Origin: Coraliomargarita sp.
Lineage (GTDB): Bacteria; Verrucomicrobiota; Verrucomicrobiia; Opitutales; Coraliomargaritaceae
Assembly: GCA_965216325.1 (NCBI GenBank)
Contig: OZ244160.1
Coordinates: 160,001 to 224,000 of the forward strand
Length of the DNA: 64,000 nt
Direction: 5' to 3'
A program made the position numbers and the translations under genes. Under the pieces are notes generated by a model that worked only from the letters and a program-made list of their open reading frames with translations, ran no database searches and was not told the origin of the DNA. The first letter of the stretch is position 1. Every line of letters starts with the position of its first letter. This document shows, piece by piece, positions 1-29,522 of this stretch.

Positions 1-1
1 G

Positions 2-1528
2 TTTGCCGAGTTGCAGTTGAGTGAGCCCGAGCGCGTAGATCAGGGCTGAATTTTCAGGGTCCAGTTGCAGTGCATTTTCGTAGTCATAATAGGCGCCTTC
101 CAGATCGCCTAATTTCCTGAGCAGTGAACCGCGCAGTCCGCGTGTCTCGATCTGGCGCGGGTTGATCGCCAGCGATTCGTTAAACGCACTGAGTGCGAGT
201 GCGGTTTGGCCTTCGGCTTGATGGGCACGCCCGAGCATTGCCCAGACTTCGGCGTTGGGTGCGATTTGGTTGATGGCGTAGGCTTCGAGTAGTGGGATCG
301 CTCGGGGCATCTCATTGGCTTTGAGTAGGATGCGACAGGCAGCGATTGCTTCCTCGCTGTCTTCGGGCTTAAAGCCGTGGTCGAGGGCACGCAGCACTTC
401 CGCGATCGCCTGTTCGTCGCGCTTGAGCTTGTCGTGGCAGAGTCCATGGTAAAAGAGCAGTGAGCTGTGCAGGGCAGTTTGTTCCTCCGGCACGAGTTCC
501 AAGGCTTCTTCAAATTTGGCGCGTGCGGTGCCGGCCCGTCCTTTTGCCAGAGCCGCGCGTCCTTCTAGATAGAGTGCGATGTCGGCGAGTTCGGGCTGTG
601 CCGCGATGGGGTCGATGATCTTCTCTAATGAATCCCACTGCTCGGTGCTGGCATAGATCGAGGCGAGCGTGATTAAAACTTCGAGATTCTCCGGTTGTTG
701 GCCGTTCAGACTGCGTAACTCTTCAATCGCTTCGTCACTATCACCGATCTGGGTGAGGAAGCGAGCCCGCACCAAGCGCAGTTGGGTCAGGCGTTGGAAG
801 TTGGCTTCGCCGGTTTGCCCTTGGTGCACGGCAATCGCCTCGTCAATGGCTTGAAGTGCCTCGTTGTTTTCGCGCTTTTCGGCCGCGAGGTGGGCTTTTT
901 CCAGATAGGCCTCACTGGCGAGGTGTAGGCTTAGGCCTGGGGCATCGGGGTTGGCGAGGTAATTATTGTTAAAGGCTTCAGCGGCGGCATCCCAATCGCC
1001 GTCGGCCATTCGCAGCAGACCGAGTAATTTATTCGCGGTGCGGGTGTCTTTACTCTGTGGCGCTGACTGGGCGATGACTTGTTCGATCAAGCCGACGGCT
1101 TCTTCGTGCTGTTCGAGGTTCACGAGCACCAGCGCCTTCAGCAGTAGAGTTTGCGCATCGTCGGGTGCCAGTTCGAGCGCCTGATCGGCGAGTTGTAGGG
1201 CGGTTGCCCCATCGCCCTGATCGAGCTTAATGCGGCTTTTTAATTTTAACGCGGGTAGATAGTCCGGGGCGATGCGGAGGATCTGGTTGGCGCCGTTTTC
1301 GGCTCCGCGTAAGTCGCCAATCAGGTAATTCCCCTCGGCCAGCCCGTAGTAGAGCTTGGCGCGCGACAGTGTGGGGTCCTGCTTGTCTGCAGCAGCTAGT
1401 GGGCTTAGCAGTGCGAGGCCGCTTAATAGGGCGATTGAGAGGCGACGTTTGGATGCTTCGCCAGCGAGCGGTATACCGCGCGCGCGCAAGTGGGGAAGGG
1501 TGATAGGACTGAAAAAGCGCCTGAGCAT
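2..1528 (-). CDS. Tetratricopeptide-repeat (TPR) protein, probably exported; runs off the left edge
   Basis: Not in the ORF track because the stop lies outside the window. Manual translation from ATG at 1528 gives MLRRFFSP...[18 protein letters not shown]...[16 protein letters not shown]; the same frame at position 2 reads [12 protein letters not shown]. These are repeated TPR-like helices. Confidence 0.8.
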
Positions 1529-14332: not shown

Positions 14333-14875
14333 GGGCGTGCCTTGGCGCGCCCGCAGCAGCCAGAGTTGGAGGGCAACGCTCCGTCGTTGCCATTCAGTGT
14401 TGTCTGTCTTCTACTCAGGCGTGGTGGCAATGGCGGACTCCGTGTCTCCGTGGTCGTCCATTCAGTGGGTGGCTCTGTGGTGGTTACCACCCGCTTCGCT
14501 GGAGACACGAAGGCACAGAGAACTGTCGGAGCTGTAAATGAGGTGAAGGGTTCGTGGAGGGCAACGCTCCGTCGTTGCCGTTCAGTGTGGCCAGTCTTCT
14601 ACTCCGGCGTGGTGGCAATGGCGGAGCATTGCCCTCCAGGGGAAACCGCTCAAGGACGCTGAATTCCGCTAAAACGTAGGGCGAAGCACGCACTCCTCGA
14701 GCCAGCTTGGGGTAGCGCAGCCGCGTCTCGCGGCGCACCACGTCGTCTTAAGTTCGCCTTATCGTATGCGGAGCGTGACGCTCCCGCGCTACCTCGGCAT
14801 TAAGTGTATTTTAGCGTTCTTCAGCAGTCATCTTCCGTCCGCCCGATCTCCGATTTCGGTCCTCCGGCCTCCGAG
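14329..14875. repeat. Cluster of at least five different palindromic repeat families
   Basis: GTAGGGGC REP at 14329-14353; GGAG REP doublets at 14367-14437 (right arm broken) and 14555-14638; ctccgtgtctccgtgg/ggagacacgaaggcacagag arms at 14438-14520; ggtagcgc..gcgctacc at 14711-14793; F2 heptamers near 14843-14873. Confidence 0.8.
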
Positions 14876-15149: not shown

Positions 15150-16148
15150 ATGAAGCATCTCAAAAAATCTACTTTTCTGCTGGCGAGCGCTGCCCTGAGC
15201 CTCGCAGCAACCAGCCAAGCCGCTGAGGTTAGCACTGATCCGGTTGGCTATGTCTCGACTTCACTAAATTCGGGATACACCCCGGTTGGCATCACTTTTG
15301 TCAAACCTGCAGAATTTTCTGGAACAGGGGCATCTGCCACCGCAACCACCATTGAACTTTCTTCAGCCCCATCGCTGGATCTTGATAATAATACATATTA
15401 TGTTGAGATAACTAGTGGAGATAATGTTGGTGATCGTATCGACATTGCTTCTGTTGCGGGTTCTACAGTAACTTTTGATTTCTCTGTCTCCTACAACACA
15501 TTGGATAGTGTAGCTGGCTTGGCTGATGGCACTGCTCTTCTTATTCGTCCCCACTACACTGTTGGTGACTTCAGTGCTTTAATCGCTGATAGTATTAATT
15601 CGGATGATGCATTTACGCCTGCGGGCTCTGATCAAATCCTCATTTTTGATGGTTCATTCAAAACTCATATATATTACAGCGGGGCTTGGTATGAGAATTT
15701 TGGTAGCTTCGAGCTGGCCACTGACAAAGTCCTAGCTCCGGGATTCGGTTTTTTCTATCATCGTAACCCAAGTGCTGGAACTCCAAGCACAATAGATGTT
15801 ACCTTTACTGGTTCTGTTCGCATGAACAATTTTGTGCAGCGTTTGCGTCCAGGCTACCAATTTGTTGCTAGTGGATATCCGATCGATGCATCCCCTTCTG
15901 ATTATAGTTACGATGAGAATCTAGAGGCTTCACCTAATTTTGTCGCAAGCGAGTCTGACTTGATCCTGACCTGGGATAATGGATTTAAGACTCACTTGCT
16001 GTATGACGACGGTAATACGAAGTCTTGGTATCAGAACTTTGGATCCTTTGACCAGGTTGACGATGACAATCTTCTTACTTCGTCGAATGCGATGTTCGTC
16101 TTCATCAAGACGAATGGGCAAGTTTTTGAGATTGTTCGCCCATTTTAA
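15150..16148 (+). CDS. Secreted protein, TIGR02597-like (verrucomicrobial, found beside PEP-CTERM genes)
   Basis: Signal peptide followed by the STDPVGY motif, YYVEI.SG, L.IRPH.T and a C-terminal RPF; two internal repeats (SDQILIFDG.FKTH / SDLILTWD.GFKTH, WY.NFGSF). Confidence 0.7.
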   Translation: MKHLKKSTFLLASAALSLAATSQAAEVSTDPVGYVSTSLNSGYTPVGITFVKPAEFSGTGASATATTIELSSAPSLDLDNNTYYVEITSGDNVGDRIDIASVAGSTVTFDFSVSYNTLDSVAGLADGTALLIRPHYTVGDFSALIADSINSDDAFTPAGSDQILIFDGSFKTHIYYSGAWYENFGSFELATDKVLAPGFGFFYHRNPSAGTPSTIDVTFTGSVRMNNFVQRLRPGYQFVASGYPIDASPSDYSYDENLEASPNFVASESDLILTWDNGFKTHLLYDDGNTKSWYQNFGSFDQVDDDNLLTSSNAMFVFIKTNGQVFEIVRPF

Positions 16149-16184
16149 TTCCGACAGCTTTTTATTACTACAAACTAGAAATCT

Positions 16185-16778
16185 ATGAACAAAAGAATCG
16201 TTTCAATTTTTGCTGCACTAGTGTGTGGATCCACGCTTTCTGCATCTTTGATCAATTTTCAGTCTGGTTCTCTTACCTCCTTTTTGCAAGCCGATGGTGC
16301 GACCAATCTTGATGGCACGTATACATTTGCATTGGGCACCTTCAGCGAAGCTGCTCTAGCGGGTAGCTCGGACTCTTGGTTCGCTGCTTTTGATGATCAG
16401 ATGGTGGGGACAAATGATTGGCTTACTTCTGGTCCTGCTCCGGTGATCAATACCTTTCAAGGCGACCAATTGATGGTTGATGGCAGTGAGACTAGCAGTG
16501 CTGCTTACATTTTTGGATATAATACGGATCAATCTGAAATTATCATCTTCAGGAATGCTTCATGGGTGTTCCCAACGTTCGATGATCTGGATGTTAGTGC
16601 AGATATTTTCTCGCTTCAAGACGCTAACACAGAAGTTGTCACATCCGCTGGCTCTTGGGTGACATTCAATAATAATCTTCAGATGATTACAGCATCTGCA
16701 GTTCCAGAGCCATCCACCTACGCAGCACTCTCTGGTTTGCTTGCGCTAGGCTACGTGATGGTTCGCCGTCGTAAGTAA
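16185..16778 (+). CDS. PEP-CTERM sorting-signal protein
   Basis: Signal peptide; C-terminal VPEPSTYAALSGLLALGYVMVRRRK. Confidence 0.93.
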   Translation: MNKRIVSIFAALVCGSTLSASLINFQSGSLTSFLQADGATNLDGTYTFALGTFSEAALAGSSDSWFAAFDDQMVGTNDWLTSGPAPVINTFQGDQLMVDGSETSSAAYIFGYNTDQSEIIIFRNASWVFPTFDDLDVSADIFSLQDANTEVVTSAGSWVTFNNNLQMITASAVPEPSTYAALSGLLALGYVMVRRRK

Positions 16779-16801: not shown

Positions 16802-16833
16802 AGCCTCGGTTCGTTTCGGACCGAGGCTTTTTT
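16802..16833 (+). terminator. Rho-independent terminator
   Basis: agcctcggt-N9-accgaggct followed by a T tract. Confidence 0.85.
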
Positions 16834-16907
16834 GTGTCTGGAGCGGGACGCTAGGGTAGGACAGTTTTGCAGGTGCTTTGGGTCTCCTTCGCGAAACTTT
16901 GCAGGCA

Positions 16908-17340
16908 AGTAATAATTAGGGACAGGCTAAATAAAATTGACCTCAATCTGAATTCTGAGCAGTGTTTATCCCATAGCAATGCGCCAACGACGTCTAAAAG
17001 TAGGAGGCAGGGAAGCGATCTATCACTGTATGACTCGGACAGTGAATGGTGAGTTGCTGTTTGAGGATCGTGAGAAGGAGATGCTGCGTAAGATGATGCA
17101 TCAGGTCGCAGACTTTTGTGGAGTTCAGGTGCTCACGTTTTGCATTATGTCGAACCACTTTCACGTGCTGGTTAAGGTGCCCGATGCGCCACAAGTTTCT
17201 GATCAAGAGCTGATGCGGCGTTACAAAGTGCTGTATCCGAAGCCAACGAAATATCAGGCCGAATCTGCGAAGCAGATGGAGTTGCTTCTTTTAGCTGGGG
17301 GTGATGATGCAGAGGTAATTCGATCCAAACTATTGGCTCG
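16908..17340 (+). pseudogene. Truncated 5' copy 1 (433 bp) of the Y1/HUH transposase element
   Basis: Near-identical to 17471-17903 (differences at 17126 and 17170); ends at CTCG. Confidence 0.9.
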
Positions 17341-17470
17341 AGTAATAATTAGGGACAGGCTAAATAAAATTGACCTCAATCTGAATTCTGAGCAGTGTCT
17401 ATCCCATAGCAATGCGCCAACGACGTCTAAAAGTAGGAGGCAGGGAAGCGATCTATCACTGTATGACTCG
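17341..17470 (+). pseudogene. Truncated 5' copy 2 (130 bp) of the Y1/HUH transposase element
   Basis: Near-identical to 17471-17600 (one difference at 17399); ends at CTCG. Confidence 0.9.
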
Positions 17471-17541
17471 AGTAATAATTAGGGACAGGCTAAATAAAAT
17501 TGACCTCAATCTGAATTCTGAGCAGTGTTTATCCCATAGCA

Positions 17542-18522
17542 ATGCGCCAACGACGTCTAAAAGTAGGAGGCAGGGAAGCGATCTATCACTGTATGACTCG
17601 GACAGTGAATGGTGAGTTGCTGTTTGAGGATCGTGAGAAGGAGATGCTGCGTAAGATGATGCATCAGGTCGCAGACTTTTGTGGAGTTGAGGTGCTCACG
17701 TTTTGCATTATGTCGAACCACTTTCACGTGCTAGTTAAGGTGCCCGATGCGCCACAAGTTTCTGATCAAGAGCTGATGCGGCGTTACAAAGTGCTGTATC
17801 CGAAGCCAACGAAATATCAGGCCGAATCTGCGAAGCAGATGGAGTTGCTTCTTTTAGCTGGGGGTGATGATGCAGAGGTAATTCGATCCAAACTATTGGC
17901 TCGTATGGCAGATGTTTCTGAGTTTATGAAAGCGCTCAAACAGCGCTTTTCGGTCTGGTATAACCGCAGCCATCGCCGCTACGGGACGCTTTGGGCAGAG
18001 CGCTTTAAGTCGGTGCTGGTTGAGGGCGCGGGCAATGCCCTGCAAACCATTGCTGCCTATATCGATTTGAATTCAGTGCGGGCAGGTTTAGTTGATGATC
18101 CGAAGGACTACCGCTTCTGTGGCTATGCTGAAGCGGTGGCAGGAGTCGCCAGTGCGTGCAATGGACTTAAGCGTATATGGGCCGACCACGGCCGAGACTA
18201 TCTCCACGCACATCGAACGCTTTTATTTGGTAAGGGGGCTAGTCCGTGGACGCATCACGGAAAAGTCATCAATCGGCAGAAAGCCCTCAAGGTATTGGAG
18301 CGAGAGGACGGCGAACTTTCCAAGGCGGCGATACTGCGTTGTCGAATTCGCTACTTCTCAGATGGCGCAATTCTTGGCAGTGCCGAATATGTGCGTGGCT
18401 TCTCGGGTGCATGGCAACTTGAACGTGGGCGCAAGCATCCTCCTAAAGTTAATCAACTGCGCGGTGCTGCTTGGGGCGATCTATCAGTCATTCAAGGACT
18501 GCGGAAGCAGGTGTTTGGTTAG
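17542..18522 (+). mobile_element. Y1/HUH transposase (IS200-like / RAYT-related, long form)
   Basis: YHCMTR, FCIMSNHFHVL (HUH), YN..H.R.GTLW..RFKS, and YIDLN.VRAGLV..P.DY..C.Y with the catalytic Tyr. Confidence 0.88.
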
Positions 18523-18574
18523 CGCGTTGTTTTAGGATCGTCCTCGATCATCCTGGTCTTGTAGGCTCACGCTT

Positions 18575-19105: not shown

Positions 19106-19108
19106 AAT

Positions 19109-19191
19109 TGGAGGGCAACGCTCCGTCGTTGCCGTTCAGTGTTGTCAGTGTTCTGTTCTGGCGTGGTGGCAATGACGGAGCATTGCCCTCC
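19109..19191. repeat. GGAG-type REP doublet (REPIN) 5' of the RAYT gene
   Basis: tggagggcaacgctccgtcgttgcc-N34-ggcaatgacggagcattgccctcc. Confidence 0.92.
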
Positions 19192-19244
19192 GGCTCGCCG
19201 CGAGGTGAAATGGAATAACATAGGAGCATTGCTCACCAAATGAT

Positions 19245-19718
19245 ATGGAATATGAGGACCGAAAGCATCCGGCTAGGCATCCAGTGATCCGGAATGGAAA
19301 TCGCTCAGAGATTTTATTTGTCACGGTCTGCGCCCATCAAAGGAAGCGCATTCTAGCCACACCGCTGGTGCATGACTTACTGGTTGCTGCTTGGGAGAGC
19401 GCGGATCATTGGTTGGTCGGCAGGTATGTCATTTTGCCTGATCACATTCATTTGTTTTGCGCGCCTGCTCAGGTCGATTATTTGTCGGTTCAGCGTTGGA
19501 TTGCTTTCTGGAAGTCGTCCGTTTCAAAGGCGTGGCCGAACCAGGATGCCAAGCCAATTTGGCAAATTGATGGTTGGGATCGTCAGCTGCGCAAAGGAGA
19601 TAGCTACAGTCAGAAATGGGCCTATGTGAGGAACAATCCAGTGCGCCATGGGCTAGTGGATGATCCGGAGGATTGGCCGTATCAAGGAGAGTTGAATCAA
19701 TTTTTGTGGCATGATTAA
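19245..19718 (+). mobile_element. REP-associated tyrosine transposase (RAYT, TnpA-REP-like)
   Basis: FVTVC..R...L, YVILPDHIHL (HUH), IWQ..GWDR.LR and YVRNNPVRHGLV..PEDWPY; flanked on both sides by REP doublets. Confidence 0.92.
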
Positions 19719-20587
19719 TGGAGGGCAACGCTCCGCCGTTGCCGTGCAGTGTTGTCAGTCTTCTGTTCAGGCGTGGTGGCAATGGCGGAGCATTGCCCTC
19801 CAGCTAGCAGTGGCGTGTTGTGTGTGATTGGAGGGCAACGCTCCGCCGTTGCCGTGCAGTGTTGTCGGCCTTCTGCTCAGGCGTGGTGGCAATGACGGAG
19901 CATTGCCCTCCAGCTAGCAGTGGCGTGTTGTGTATGATTGGAGGGCAACGCTCCGCCGTTGCCGTGCAGTGTTGTCGGTCTTCTGCTCAGGCGTGGTGGC
20001 AATGGCGGAGCATTGCCCTCCAGCTAGCAGTGGCGTGTTGTGTATGATTGGAGTGCAACGCTCCGCCGTTGCCGTGCAGTGTTGTCAGTCTTCTGTTCAG
20101 GCGTGGTGGCAATGGCGGAGCATTGCCCTCCAGCTAGCAGTGGCGTGTTGTGTGTGATTGGAGGGCAACGCTCCGCCGTTGCCGTGCAGTGTTGTCGGCC
20201 TTCTGCTCAGGCGTGGTGGCAATGACGGAGCATTGCCCTCCAGCTAGCAGTGGCGTGTTGTGTATGATTGGAGGGCAACGCTCCGCCGTTGCCGTGCAGT
20301 GTTGTCAGTCTTCTGTTCAGGCGTGGTGGCAATGGCGGAGCATTGCCCTCCAGCTAGCAGTGGCGTGTTGTGTATGATTGGAGTGCAACGCTCCGCCGTT
20401 GCCGTGCAGTGTTGTCGGCCTTCTGCTCAGGCGTGGTGGCAATGACGGAGCATTGCCCTCCAGCTTGCAGTGGCGTGTTGTGTGTGATTGGAGTGCAACG
20501 CTCCGCCGTTGCCGTGCAGTGTTGTCAGTTTTCTGTTCAGGCGTGGTGGCAATGACGGAGCATTGCCCTTCAGCTTGCAGTGACGTG
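19719..20587. repeat. Tandem array of eight 110-bp REPIN units
   Basis: Units start at 19720, 19830, 19940, 20050, 20160, 20270, 20380 and 20490. Each is an inverted REP pair plus a linker, and a degenerate REP follows near 20594-20618. Confidence 0.95.
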
Positions 20588-25321: not shown

Positions 25322-28075
<2,754 letters not shown>

Positions 28076-28276
28076 AAGAAACGATCATTTTGTGGATCGA
28101 GTTGAGTTCCGAATGCGCCCAGTAATGAACGCCTTCGGCGTGAGAAAGCATGCAGCAAATGAATTTCGCGAAAGCTGTCAACGTATTAGATTTGCTGATT
28201 CTGAGTTCGGGCCAGGATCTGATTTTGCGTATTTGAGTTGCGCTTTATGCGAGTGAATCGCTAGTTGAACAGGCGA

Positions 28277-29176
28277 ATGAGCAAAGACGAACAGCCATAC
28301 GACGATAAGCCGCAAGACGACCCTTACACTGACGAGCATCAGGATGTCTTCGGTGATGATTACTCGGAGGGGTATGATGACTATGCGTATGATGAACCCG
28401 ACGCCGATGAGGAAGCTGAAGGAGGGATGTCGTTTTTGGAGCACCTCGAGGAATTTCGCTGGACGGTCGCGCGTAGTTTGTTGGCCTTCGTCATCGGGGT
28501 TGTGGTCGTGGTCATCTTCCACAAGCAGATCGCGGTGTTTATGCAGATGCCGCTGCACAAAGCCTATGGGTCTGCCGAGGTGGCTCGTGAGAATCTGATC
28601 ACCTATAAAGCGATGGGGGTGATCTCGGTCTTTTTTCAGGTGGCGTTGTTGGGGGGCTTTACCTTGTCGATGCCCTTTGTGCTTTATTTCTTGGGGCGCT
28701 TTGTGGCGCCGGGGCTCAACGAGAAGGAGCGCAAAGTGCTCGCCCCGTCCTGCCTCGCTGCTTTTATCCTGTTTTTGGTGGGGGTCGCGTTTGCCTTTTA
28801 TATTATTTTGCCGCTGGCTCTGGCGTTTACCGTGAAGCTCAATCAGCACATGGGCTTCGATATTTTTTGGGCGGCCTCGGACTATTATAATATGGTGGTG
28901 TGGTTCTCGCTGTCGATTGGGGCGTTTTTTCAGTTCCCATTGATTGTGGTGCTGCTGGTCTTTATCGGAGTGCTGGAAACTCAGACGCTCAAGACAGCAC
29001 GACGCTTGGTTTTTGTCAGTCTGATGGTCTTCTCCGCTTTGGTTTCGCCCGGGGGTGATCCGATTTCGCTCAGTGTCACGACCGGCTTCATGTATGGTCT
29101 GTATGAGTTGGCGATCGCCATTGGTGCGCGCATCGAGCGCAAGCGCCAGGCTGAGATTGATGCCGCGCTGGAGTAG
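28277..29176 (+). CDS. tatC: Twin-arginine translocase subunit TatC with acidic N-terminal extension
   Basis: [16 protein letters not shown]...E and FQFP motifs; six TM segments; LYEL. Confidence 0.92.
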
Positions 29177-29522
29177 GAACCGTTAATTTACGTCAATTAA
29201 CGTTAATTATTGTGTCGTATTGTAGCGGGTGCTGTCTCCATGCGCGTGCGTTTTGGAGAACTTAGGGTTCTTTTCAGGAAGGATGCGAAGATGAAAGAAG
29301 CATGGCTTGAGCGAGTTCGAAGGCGTCTTCTCTTTTGGGGCGCCCGGTCTCAAGTACTTGGGCTCCTAGCTGCTTTATTAATCGGTAGCGCGATTGACTT
29401 AGGCTTTTCAGGCGATTTCATCGGATACGCCTTTGGGGGGATTCTCAGTGTGGGCGGAACCTTTGGGCTCTCGTGAGTAGAATGAAAACTGATTCACGTT
29501 AATTGACGTCAATGGGCGGTCC
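29177..29522. repeat. Family F4 inverted arms enclosing about 280 bp of cargo
   Basis: gaaccgttaatttacgtcaattaacgttaat ... attcacgttaattgacgtcaatgggcggtcc. Confidence 0.75.
29291..29476 (+). CDS. Possible small membrane protein (61 aa) inside the F4 arms
   Basis: MKEAWLERVRRRLLFWG...: basic N-terminus and two hydrophobic stretches; purine-rich upstream sequence (ggaagga). Confidence 0.35.
   Translation: MKEAWLERVRRRLLFWGARSQVLGLLAALLIGSAIDLGFSGDFIGYAFGGILSVGGTFGLS

Follow-up and report, generated by a model that had tools for sequence, protein, structure and literature searches.

Head-to-tail partial re-copies with one fixed start and variable ends before a long HUH/Y1 transposase-type gene in Coraliomargarita and its relatives

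A 64,000-nucleotide (nt) stretch of the genome of Coraliomargarita sp. (assembly GCA_965216325.1, contig OZ244160.1, positions 160,001 to 224,000; hereafter the window) contains an intact gene for a long HUH/Y1 enzyme that is preceded, head to tail, by two shorter copies of its own front end. All three copies begin at the same nucleotide and each stops at a different point. The question raised by this locus is what process re-copies the start of a gene from one fixed nucleotide to a variable end, and what part the encoded enzyme may play in it. A first-pass annotation had proposed that the enzyme combines one fixed end with any downstream CTCG tetramer as a surrogate second end, in a mechanism able to capture adjacent genes. 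The analysis described here indicates that the window feature belongs to a mobile gene unit encoding the enzyme, of which the genome has several copies, and we interpret the pieces of 433 nt and 130 nt as 3'-truncated head-to-tail re-copies of the front end of that unit. The main new result is that such a stutter at the left end recurs across the family, so that we take it to be a family trait rather than a local oddity. A literature search, which covered PMC3733652 and PMC6006769 apart from their supplements, turned up no earlier account of partial re-copies at the left end of Y1 genes.

Repeat structure and enzyme at the window locus

The window contains the 20-mer AGTAATAATTAGGGACAGGC at three places only (16908, 17341 and 17471), and in 100 shuffles it had no match. 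Each occurrence marks the start of a copy on the + strand. Truncated copy 1 (16908..17340, 433 nt) corresponds to unit positions 1–433 and ends in GGCTCG; it contains the 71-nt leader and codons 1–121, thereby retaining the HUH motif and excluding the catalytic Tyr. Truncated copy 2 (17341..17470, 130 nt) contains the leader and codons 1–20 and ends in GACTCG. The full unit (17471..18525) consists of the leader (17471–17541) and the coding sequence (17542–18522). Its right boundary is placed a few nt from the stop codon because similarity among paralogues ends at the stop codon and because a tandem in a sister species is joined 2–5 nt past it.

Both junctions read CTCG/AGTAAT. Junction 1 (17337..17346, + strand) lacks any microhomology to the outer flank before copy 1, which reads GGCA ahead of AGTAAT. 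At junction 2 (17467..17476, + strand) the last 4 nt, and 5 of the last 6, equal the letters 5' of junction 1. Neither a target duplication nor a downstream remainder of the broken copies was seen when both were looked for at the locus. Within the full unit, CTCG is present only at offsets 127–130, 430–433, 932–935 (window 18402) and 1073–1076 (window 18543). The geometry reported in the first-pass annotation is thus confirmed in each of these respects: the common starts, the lengths of 433 and 130 nt, the clean CTCG/AGTAAT junctions, and the presence of only two CTCG tetramers in the first 433 nt, with two more further downstream.

In each copy the start is followed, 11 nt on, by a core motif, GGGACAGGC, located on the + strand at 16919..16927 in copy 1, 17352..17360 in copy 2 and 17482..17490 in the full unit. 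In the full unit the core is followed by TAAATAAAA and then by TTGAC (17500–17504), which looks like a –35 box, a label assigned here from its appearance.

A potential concern is that the structure is an artefact of assembly, as repeats of 130–433 nt can be mis-assembled. We examined this with contigs assembled from sequencing runs of the isolate, which are the form of read support used here in place of raw reads. In run X2, from the same organism, 56-nt contigs cross junction 1 (17311–17366, depth 383) and junction 2 (17441–17496, depth 388). The corresponding depths are 392 for the flank, 991 for the 130-nt unit, 671 for 17571–17903 (unit positions 131–433) and 376 downstream, a ratio over the repeat of approximately 3:2:1. 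Run X1 yielded a junction-spanning contig for junction 2 only. The junction contigs at single-copy depth together with the 3:2:1 ratio indicate that the repeat is not an assembly echo, as the first-pass annotation had maintained on different grounds. That annotation relied on three single-nucleotide polymorphisms (SNPs), and these are present in the assembly as it described: copies 1 and 3 differ at 17126 (C/G) and 17170 (G/A), and copy 2 has a private difference at 17399 (C vs T), distinct from copies 1 and 3. They are only weakly backed by contigs, X1 carrying the copy-1 allele C at 17689 and the two-copy contig of X2 showing no variant. The genome is moreover a closed contig of 3.06 Mb, and the same architecture was found in independent assemblies. 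We consider the probability of an assembly artefact to be negligible.

The gene itself (17542..18522, + strand) is an intact open reading frame of 326 amino acids (aa). Its product matches Pfam Y1_Tnp at 1e-15 and 58.3 bits, against a cut-off of 23 bits, and matches NCBIfam REP_Tyr_transpos at 65.8 bits, under the cut-off of 80 bits and split into two stretches. The residues N59-H60-F61-H62 and A172-Y173-I-D-L-N are invariant in all 27 aligned sequences. The catalytic-type Tyr is Y173, in AAYIDLN, at a spacing of 113 residues from H60. Approximately 55 aa are inserted between HUH and Tyr, the C-terminal region is conserved, and a conserved stretch, LRCRVRYFTDGAILGS, is present. In the AlphaFold model (pLDDT 86.1, pTM 0.87), helices at 75–119 lie between a strand at 60–67 and a helix at 125–144. 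A fold search with this model returned E. coli RAYT as the top PDB match (4er8_A, E 5e-6), followed by the ISDra2 and IS608 transposases; 17 PDB matches had E<=0.001, and the 16 that were listed are all Y1 transposases or RAYT. A search of PDB by sequence gave nothing below E 0.7, and no helicase domain was found in the Pfam search. With the HUH motif, the single Tyr and the predicted Y1 fold all present, the enzyme can be placed in the HUH/Y1 superfamily, in agreement with the first-pass call of an HUH transposase-type gene.

Recurrence of the stutter and its position at the left terminus

The genome contains four paralogues including the window copy, the other three having 74–76% nt identity to it. 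Their similarity is confined to the region from leader through stop codon, with nothing conserved after the stop. All four carry head-to-tail, 3'-truncated re-copies, which in the other three measure 104 nt (genome 28017), 17 nt and 66 nt (605.8 kb), and 13 nt (588.7 kb). The re-copies of each paralogue begin at one fixed nucleotide approximately 11 nt 5' of GGGACAGGC. Among the four clean two-copy head-to-tail duplications of at least 50 nt in the genome, three begin at paralogue start sites.

A fifth duplication, a 225-nt tandem at 464611, begins at a site where the motif is present without the gene. About 10 such gene-less modules, of the form (A)GTGTTTTTAGGGACAGGCTATAA(T/A)AA, lie on the + strand at 440–469 kb among genes for PEP-CTERM proteins (L005 and L006; genome 440590–440690, 463150–463215, 464600–465110 and 468250–468630). 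In addition to the 225-nt tandem, they bear head-to-tail truncated units of their own, of 9, 17 and 18 nt. These modules look like left-end segments that landed elsewhere, or like a promoter module hit by the same process. The four gene copies share their + orientation with all the motif-only sites, in a region where this strand is G-rich; we do not count this shared orientation as evidence, given the small number of independent insertions and the ordinary bias of genes between strands. The cumulative GC skew of the genome rises from 0 to approximately 1.1 Mb, falls to approximately 1.8 Mb and rises again to the end, so that its arms are very unequal (approximately 2.4 Mb vs 0.7 Mb).

The longest re-copy was found in a sister species (G002, contig C115, locus L008), where two complete 1052-nt units stand in tandem from an equivalent start point. 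Synteny is as in the window, the gene lying between a PEP-CTERM gene and a Zn-protease-like gene. The tandem junction reads TAGA-GGC-ATTAATTA, in which 3 nt fit both sides, and the join falls 2–5 nt past the stop codon. The capture of adjacent genes suggested in the first-pass annotation is thus not borne out, as even this re-copy stops directly after the stop codon.

The gene is present in 22 of the 41 related genomes searched, often in many copies. A wider scan yielded 563 relatives; of the best 80, which were kept, nearly all are labelled as Opitutales-type metagenome-assembled genomes (MAGs). An automated scan of related Opitutales, for which the criterion was a master copy starting 58–82 nt before the start codon, detected re-copies at 24 of 99 non-redundant loci; one of these proved to be a run of N, leaving 23. 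The segmentation script shifts a few arrays by 1–4 nt. Inspection of the relatives by eye brought more cases to light, among them sub-families whose cores differ (TTACTACCAGGC, TTAACCAGGC). An exact search of metagenome contigs for the 26-nt leader of the window element gave no matches, and a looser pattern gave 56 loci; of the 48 usable loci in this independent set, 13 have a further occurrence of the 9-mer immediately 5' to the core in the 150 nt upstream, as compared to 0–4 of 48 at control positions. A tblastn search of a plasmid collection gave nothing beyond two distant hits at 28–30% identity.

In 39 of the 66 full-length loci for which flanking sequence was available, GGGACAG lies in the 250 nt upstream, usually at –53 to –65 relative to the start codon, and the conserved left-end motif as a whole is GGGACAGGC-TAAAT...TTGAC. 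In L033, L057, L077, L089, L094, L098 and L109 a near-palindromic core, AGGG(T/C)CTGTCCCT, at approximately –54 replaces AGGGACAGGC. The stutter start in these loci is on the unchanged side (the unit is 108 nt in L057 and 35 nt in L109), and the site may be one that is bound by a dimer. Extreme short stutters also precede the gene at this same position, such as (TAC)x7 before CCAGGCAATAAAAT in L112, four copies of the 12-mer GTCGAGATTAGG in L099, and a multi-unit GAGTATAGCAG... array in L061.

Comparison of near-identical elements in different flanks (L063/L065; L187 vs L146/L155/L164; L184/L151) reveals that homology is lost 11 nt 5' of GGG. The nucleotide at which the stutter starts therefore coincides with the left terminus of the element, which lies 71 nt before the start codon in the window copy. 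The first-pass proposal of one fixed start and a variable second end holds up well: the pattern recurs at independent loci and in many genomes, and across the sequences analyzed fixed start, variable end and family-wide recurrence are shown.

The stutter also varies between close relatives. One metagenomic locus was found in three states, with L155 having one extra 21-nt unit as compared to L164. In a related strain known from a metagenome (X5), the window locus contains the gene once and has no stutter; a different 21-nt stretch replaces 16836–17475, with the joint running from 16835 to 17476. The L155/L164 polymorphism and the single-copy state of X5 indicate a process that is recent and ongoing at the population level.

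The truncated genes found directly upstream of two paralogues indicate that the family is mobile. The elements at 27800–29200 (L003) and 605450–606920 (L002) directly abut, on their left, a truncated sulfatase gene ending ...LYEGGIR and a truncated IS3-family orfA, of which another copy lies at 388.5 kb. The remainder of either gene was not found on the right side of these elements, and the insertions seem to have been accompanied by loss of the DNA expected to follow. At L004 (588519–590231) the element is flanked by a direct repeat consisting of the last 208–223 bp of a glmS-like gene, 96.6% identical, and an extra 185 nt separates the stop codon of the element from the intact glmS-like gene. 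This insertion looks as if the target had been re-copied, perhaps with carry-over of the 3' flank of a donor.

Mobility lends some plausibility to an origin by nested insertion, in which whole copies inserted at positions 433 and 130 and their remainders were then deleted, or in which a 433-nt unit was triplicated and a deletion between CTCG tetramers followed. Such a CTCG/CTCG deletion in a triplicated unit would, by our reasoning, yield junction 2, and in one relative (L028) a truncated first copy is followed by a diverged second copy, the two having different leaders. The downstream sequence speaks against it, however, as no remainder (131 onward or 434 onward) is present there and the syntenic Zn-protease-like gene comes next in both species. 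At least two precise extra deletions would also be needed at each of dozens of loci, and units of 9–20 nt would be left unexplained. We regard nested insertion as very improbable.

Two further features border or overlap the repeat. A predicted chimeric open reading frame of 167 aa (16979..17482, + strand) continues from enzyme residues 1–121 into the copy 2 leader; it retains the HUH motif and lacks the catalytic Tyr. Just 5' of the unit, the strain-variable stretch at 16836..16907, which is given no strand, contains motif-like debris (TAGGGTAGGACAG, GCAGGCA) that might be the remains of an old stutter. Directly before this stretch, at approximately 16803–16838, is a hairpin resembling an intrinsic terminator, which follows genes (window 15150–16778) encoding two secreted proteins of 332 aa and 197 aa, the latter with a PEP-CTERM anchor.

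A candidate mechanism and the choice of the second end

The fixed start at the transposition boundary, the variable ends, the head-to-tail order of the 5' re-copies and the lack of a duplication or remainder all favor a nick in one particular strand at the left terminus. We propose that a left-end nick, extension by a polymerase and rejoining of the 5' end held by the enzyme make the stutter, a reading to which we assign an even chance. The enzyme would bind the core, nick the top strand at the left terminus and stay on the 5' end of the unit; HUH enzymes stay attached to the 5' end after nicking. Strand-displacement synthesis by a host polymerase from the freed 3'-OH of the flank would then re-copy positions 1 to n, and the 5' end held by the enzyme would be rejoined to the extended 3' end to give flank/[1..n]/[1..full]. 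Most attempts would halt within or just after the core and leave units of 15–19 nt, a few would extend for tens to hundreds of nt, and rarely the whole unit would be copied; the core would be a hot spot for stops if the polymerase meets bound protein there. Transposition would result when a run is complete and its 5' end is handed on to a different 3' end. The nick, its strand and the rejoining are inferred from the products, and the model is supported by the retention of the catalytic residues in 27 of 27 relatives and by the Y1 fold.

For the window locus, the model would require one event with n=433 and another with n=130 from a nick beside the full copy. The order 433–130–full requires that this second event took place beside the full copy and not at the outer flank, since a 433-nt copy made at the outer flank after the 130-nt copy would read [1..130][1..303].

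The lengths of the pieces range from 9 nt up to the whole 1052-nt unit. The commonest unit is 15–19 nt and ends inside or just past the core (GGGACA, GGGACAG, CAGG); longer units of 26, 35, 40, 57, 59, 66, 70, 104, 108, 130, 225, 433 and 1052 nt are rarer. We scored 36 junctions in relatives, and their last bases (G 17, A 12, T 4, C 3) belong to no shared tetramer. The re-copies of the other paralogues in the genome end in GACG, GACA, TGCT and AAAG, and left flanks are GGCA, ATCC, GCGA and CATG in the genome and diverse in relatives. The role of CTCG as a defining surrogate end is therefore not sustained, given these diverse ends and the outer flank of GGCA, and CTCG was rejected as a family rule on the ends of the paralogues and the 36 junctions. 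Random tetramers upstream of other copies had been named in the first-pass annotation as what would speak against its proposal, and the tabulated tetramers are indeed largely of that kind.

A relaxed form of that proposal would have a second top-strand cut at CTCG or TCG release [1..n] as a single-stranded DNA (ssDNA) circle, which re-inserts at the left-end nick or elsewhere. This would account for the gene-less left-end modules at ectopic sites, which appear as if short segments had landed there, and for both window truncations ending at the sole two CTCG tetramers in the first 433 nt. TCG precedes AGT-type starts in 5 of about 27 cases (both window junctions, L187, L184 and L109) in a manual tally made post hoc, and occurs at 3 of 9 outer flanks. 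A precedent is provided by Helraiser, which as described in PMC4778049 needs its left end only and yields truncations and read-through products. The 36 junction ends are diverse, however, the commonest lying inside the core rather than at TCG, and neither GGCA at the outer flank nor the GACG, GACA, TGCT and AAAG of the other paralogues fits such a cut. Locally, the second CTCG would arise by chance with a probability of 0.017, which is unremarkable among 36 junctions, and its 4-nt microhomology with junction 1 would account for it. A second cut of this type seems to us unlikely. Under the nick and extension model, the CTCG end of copy 2 was probably picked by pairing with the CTCG of junction 1: once junction 1 existed, the sole other CTCG in the first 433 nt was used, as short pairing at the nick site would select.

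Microhomology bears on a further alternative, in which a protein bound tightly to the core acts as a non-catalytic roadblock: replication or repair synthesis would stall there, the new strand would change template with the help of microhomology, and the resulting duplications would be anchored close to the footprint of the protein. Microhomology of at least 2 nt is enriched (15 junctions vs 6.0 expected), as is that of at least 3 nt (9 vs 2.1 expected, with 4 of these 9 being repeats of identical short units). The core is at a fixed promoter-like position, and identical short units such as the 12-mer of L099 and the TAC of L112 look like products of slippage. On the other hand, microhomology is absent at 16 of the 36 junctions, including the 433-nt junction of the window. 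By our reasoning a roadblock would fix where synthesis stops, but not where it starts, 11 nt upstream and with the core fully included, and stalling leaves unexplained why the fixed point is the transposition boundary at different flanks. We therefore rate this alternative as improbable, even more so than a second cut. The junction statistics fit ends sealed by the enzyme or by a ligase with the aid of short pairing.

Several considerations weigh against the nick and extension model that we favor. The nick, the strand and the covalent intermediate rest on sequence, with contigs as the level of the data. Known Y1 enzymes are directed by a guide hairpin, and none was found when ssDNA folds of either end and both strands were compared with shuffles (z-scores of +1.25, +1.81, –0.44 and –1.20). 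Stuttering also occurs at the motif-only sites, which have no Y1 gene beside them, so that action in trans must be assumed, and because the core has a fixed promoter-like position the actor could be another protein. The TCG tally hints at a specificity on the 3'-OH side that the simple model does not predict, and junction 1 has no microhomology to its flank. The leader difference at L028 fits an event in trans or an old event better than it does a fresh re-copy in cis. Finally, many loci come from short-read MAGs, in which long tandem copies break contigs, and of the 20 gene fragments retrieved, 17 lie against contig ends; the frequencies are accordingly rough, and for long re-copies they are probably too low. 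Gene fragments in relatives with only the N- or the C-terminal part had been considered as solo truncated copies, a candidate dropped because of the same 17 of 20.

To our knowledge, no cis-acting sites have been established for the long Y1 enzymes (TIRYT and subclasses 2.1 and 2.3). The stutter offers, as read directly from the DNA, a conserved recognition motif, a candidate nick site precise to the nucleotide and a candidate strand. If the model is correct, it describes a new route by which Y1 enzymes move and duplicate DNA. Most of the clean tandem duplications of two copies in the genome trace to the start sites, which would then also be a local source of duplications of promoters and 5' gene regions and of length polymorphism between strains.

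Comparison with known systems

The enzyme is similar to TnpA_Y1 subclass 2.3; it is not an IS200 transposase, nor is it a RAYT flanked by REPs. Subclass 2.3 has a median length of 325 aa and a median HuH-to-Y spacing of 110 in the table row and text that describe it (Quentin et al. 2018, PMC6006769), and by that description the window enzyme fits. It has 326 aa, a spacing of 113, an insertion of approximately 55 aa between beta3 and alphaC, a long conserved C-terminus, and several diverged copies per genome without REP-like hairpins; subclasses 2.1 and 2.3 are likewise described there as having no REP-like sequences adjoining the genes. It differs in having NHFH and YIDLN[PS] where that description has NHYH and YVDLNP, and in its host, Opitutales (Verrucomicrobiota) as opposed to Chromatiales or Alteromonadales. 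The same row and text give no cis site, ends or activity for subclass 2.3, and to this published picture our analysis adds an upstream core motif and the stutter.

As described by Di Nocera et al. 2013 (PMC3733652), TIRYT is also a long RAYT-like Y1 enzyme without REPs, and the motif flanking TIRtrons, GGGGWSAS, fits the core AGGGACAG at 7 of 8 positions, the first G being A or T here. TIRtrons are, however, defined by terminal inverted repeats on both sides, whereas the motif here is upstream only. In 66 full-length loci searched for terminal inverted repeats, CTGTCCC was found within 300 nt downstream in 1 and GGGACAG in 2, with CTGTCCC upstream in 7. Identity with TIRYT/TIRtron was rejected on the inverted core being downstream in 1 of 66 loci.

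Elements of the IS200/IS605 family are marked by imperfect subterminal hairpins at both ends and by a constant tetra- or pentanucleotide abutting the left end. The unit studied here shares with IS608, ISDra2 and RAYT the fold with HUH and the single Tyr of Y1, and shares with those insertion elements the lack of a target-site duplication. Unlike IS200/IS605 and RAYT/REPtron, it is more than twice the size and has neither subterminal hairpins nor a defined right-end structure. Identity with IS200/IS605 was rejected because the folds of the ends are no stabler than those of shuffles and because no constant tetra- or pentanucleotide is found at the left flank. Identity with RAYT/REPtron was rejected on the score of 65.8 bits, under 80, on the four copies in the genome, and on the lack of REP hairpins at the ends.

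A true RAYT gene is present 0.7 kb downstream of the unit (19245–19718, 157 aa, REP_Tyr_transpos 89.1 bits, above the 80-bit cut-off). Beside it is a tandem array (19609–20587) in which a 110-bp unit is repeated at least 8 times, every unit having an inverted pair of 25-nt REP-like arms (TGGAGGGCAACGCTCCGCCGTTGCC). REP-like repeats are also found at window 14366–14639 and 19107–19198, with similar copies scattered over the genome. The RAYT gene and its array are a separate REPtron with its own repeat family, distinct from the repeats of the stutter.

IS91 and ISCR elements are one-ended HUH transposons that move by a rolling circle. The product pattern of the stutter as read from the sequences, with its fixed start and variable end, resembles the one-ended behavior of IS91 and Helitrons. 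The hallmark of those systems differs in being a variable 3' end at new sites, not partial copies stacked 5' of a resident element. Their enzymes also differ from the Y1 fold found here, being of the Y2 Rep type and joined in Helitrons by a helicase; an IS91/Helitron-type enzyme was rejected because the listed fold matches are Y1/RAYT only and no helicase domain was found. The proposed model also resembles aberrant termination or illegitimate recombination at rolling-circle plasmid origins: reportedly, Michel and Ehrlich in 1986 found such events in pC194/M13, with one breakpoint at the HUH nick and the other variable, sometimes at short sites similar to the sequence lying 5' of the nick. Those events were plasmid deletions, in contrast to the chromosomal tandem re-copies beside a Y1 gene described here. 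Helraiser, as PMC4778049 describes it, has one fixed, required end and a loose other end; truncated and read-through products, some with overlaps of 1–2 nt, arise when the 3' hairpin is weak.

These likenesses allow a broader reading, which we offer tentatively and consider possible though short of probable. The long Y1 branch (of the subclass 2.3/2.1 type) may be one-ended, with a hairpin-less core, a nick one helical turn upstream and copy-out of variable length. This would represent a rolling-circle mode like that of Helitrons and IS91, evolved inside the Y1/RAYT clade, of which the stutter would be the footprint. If so, the nick sites of dozens of elements could be read from the stutter to the exact nucleotide, without experiment.

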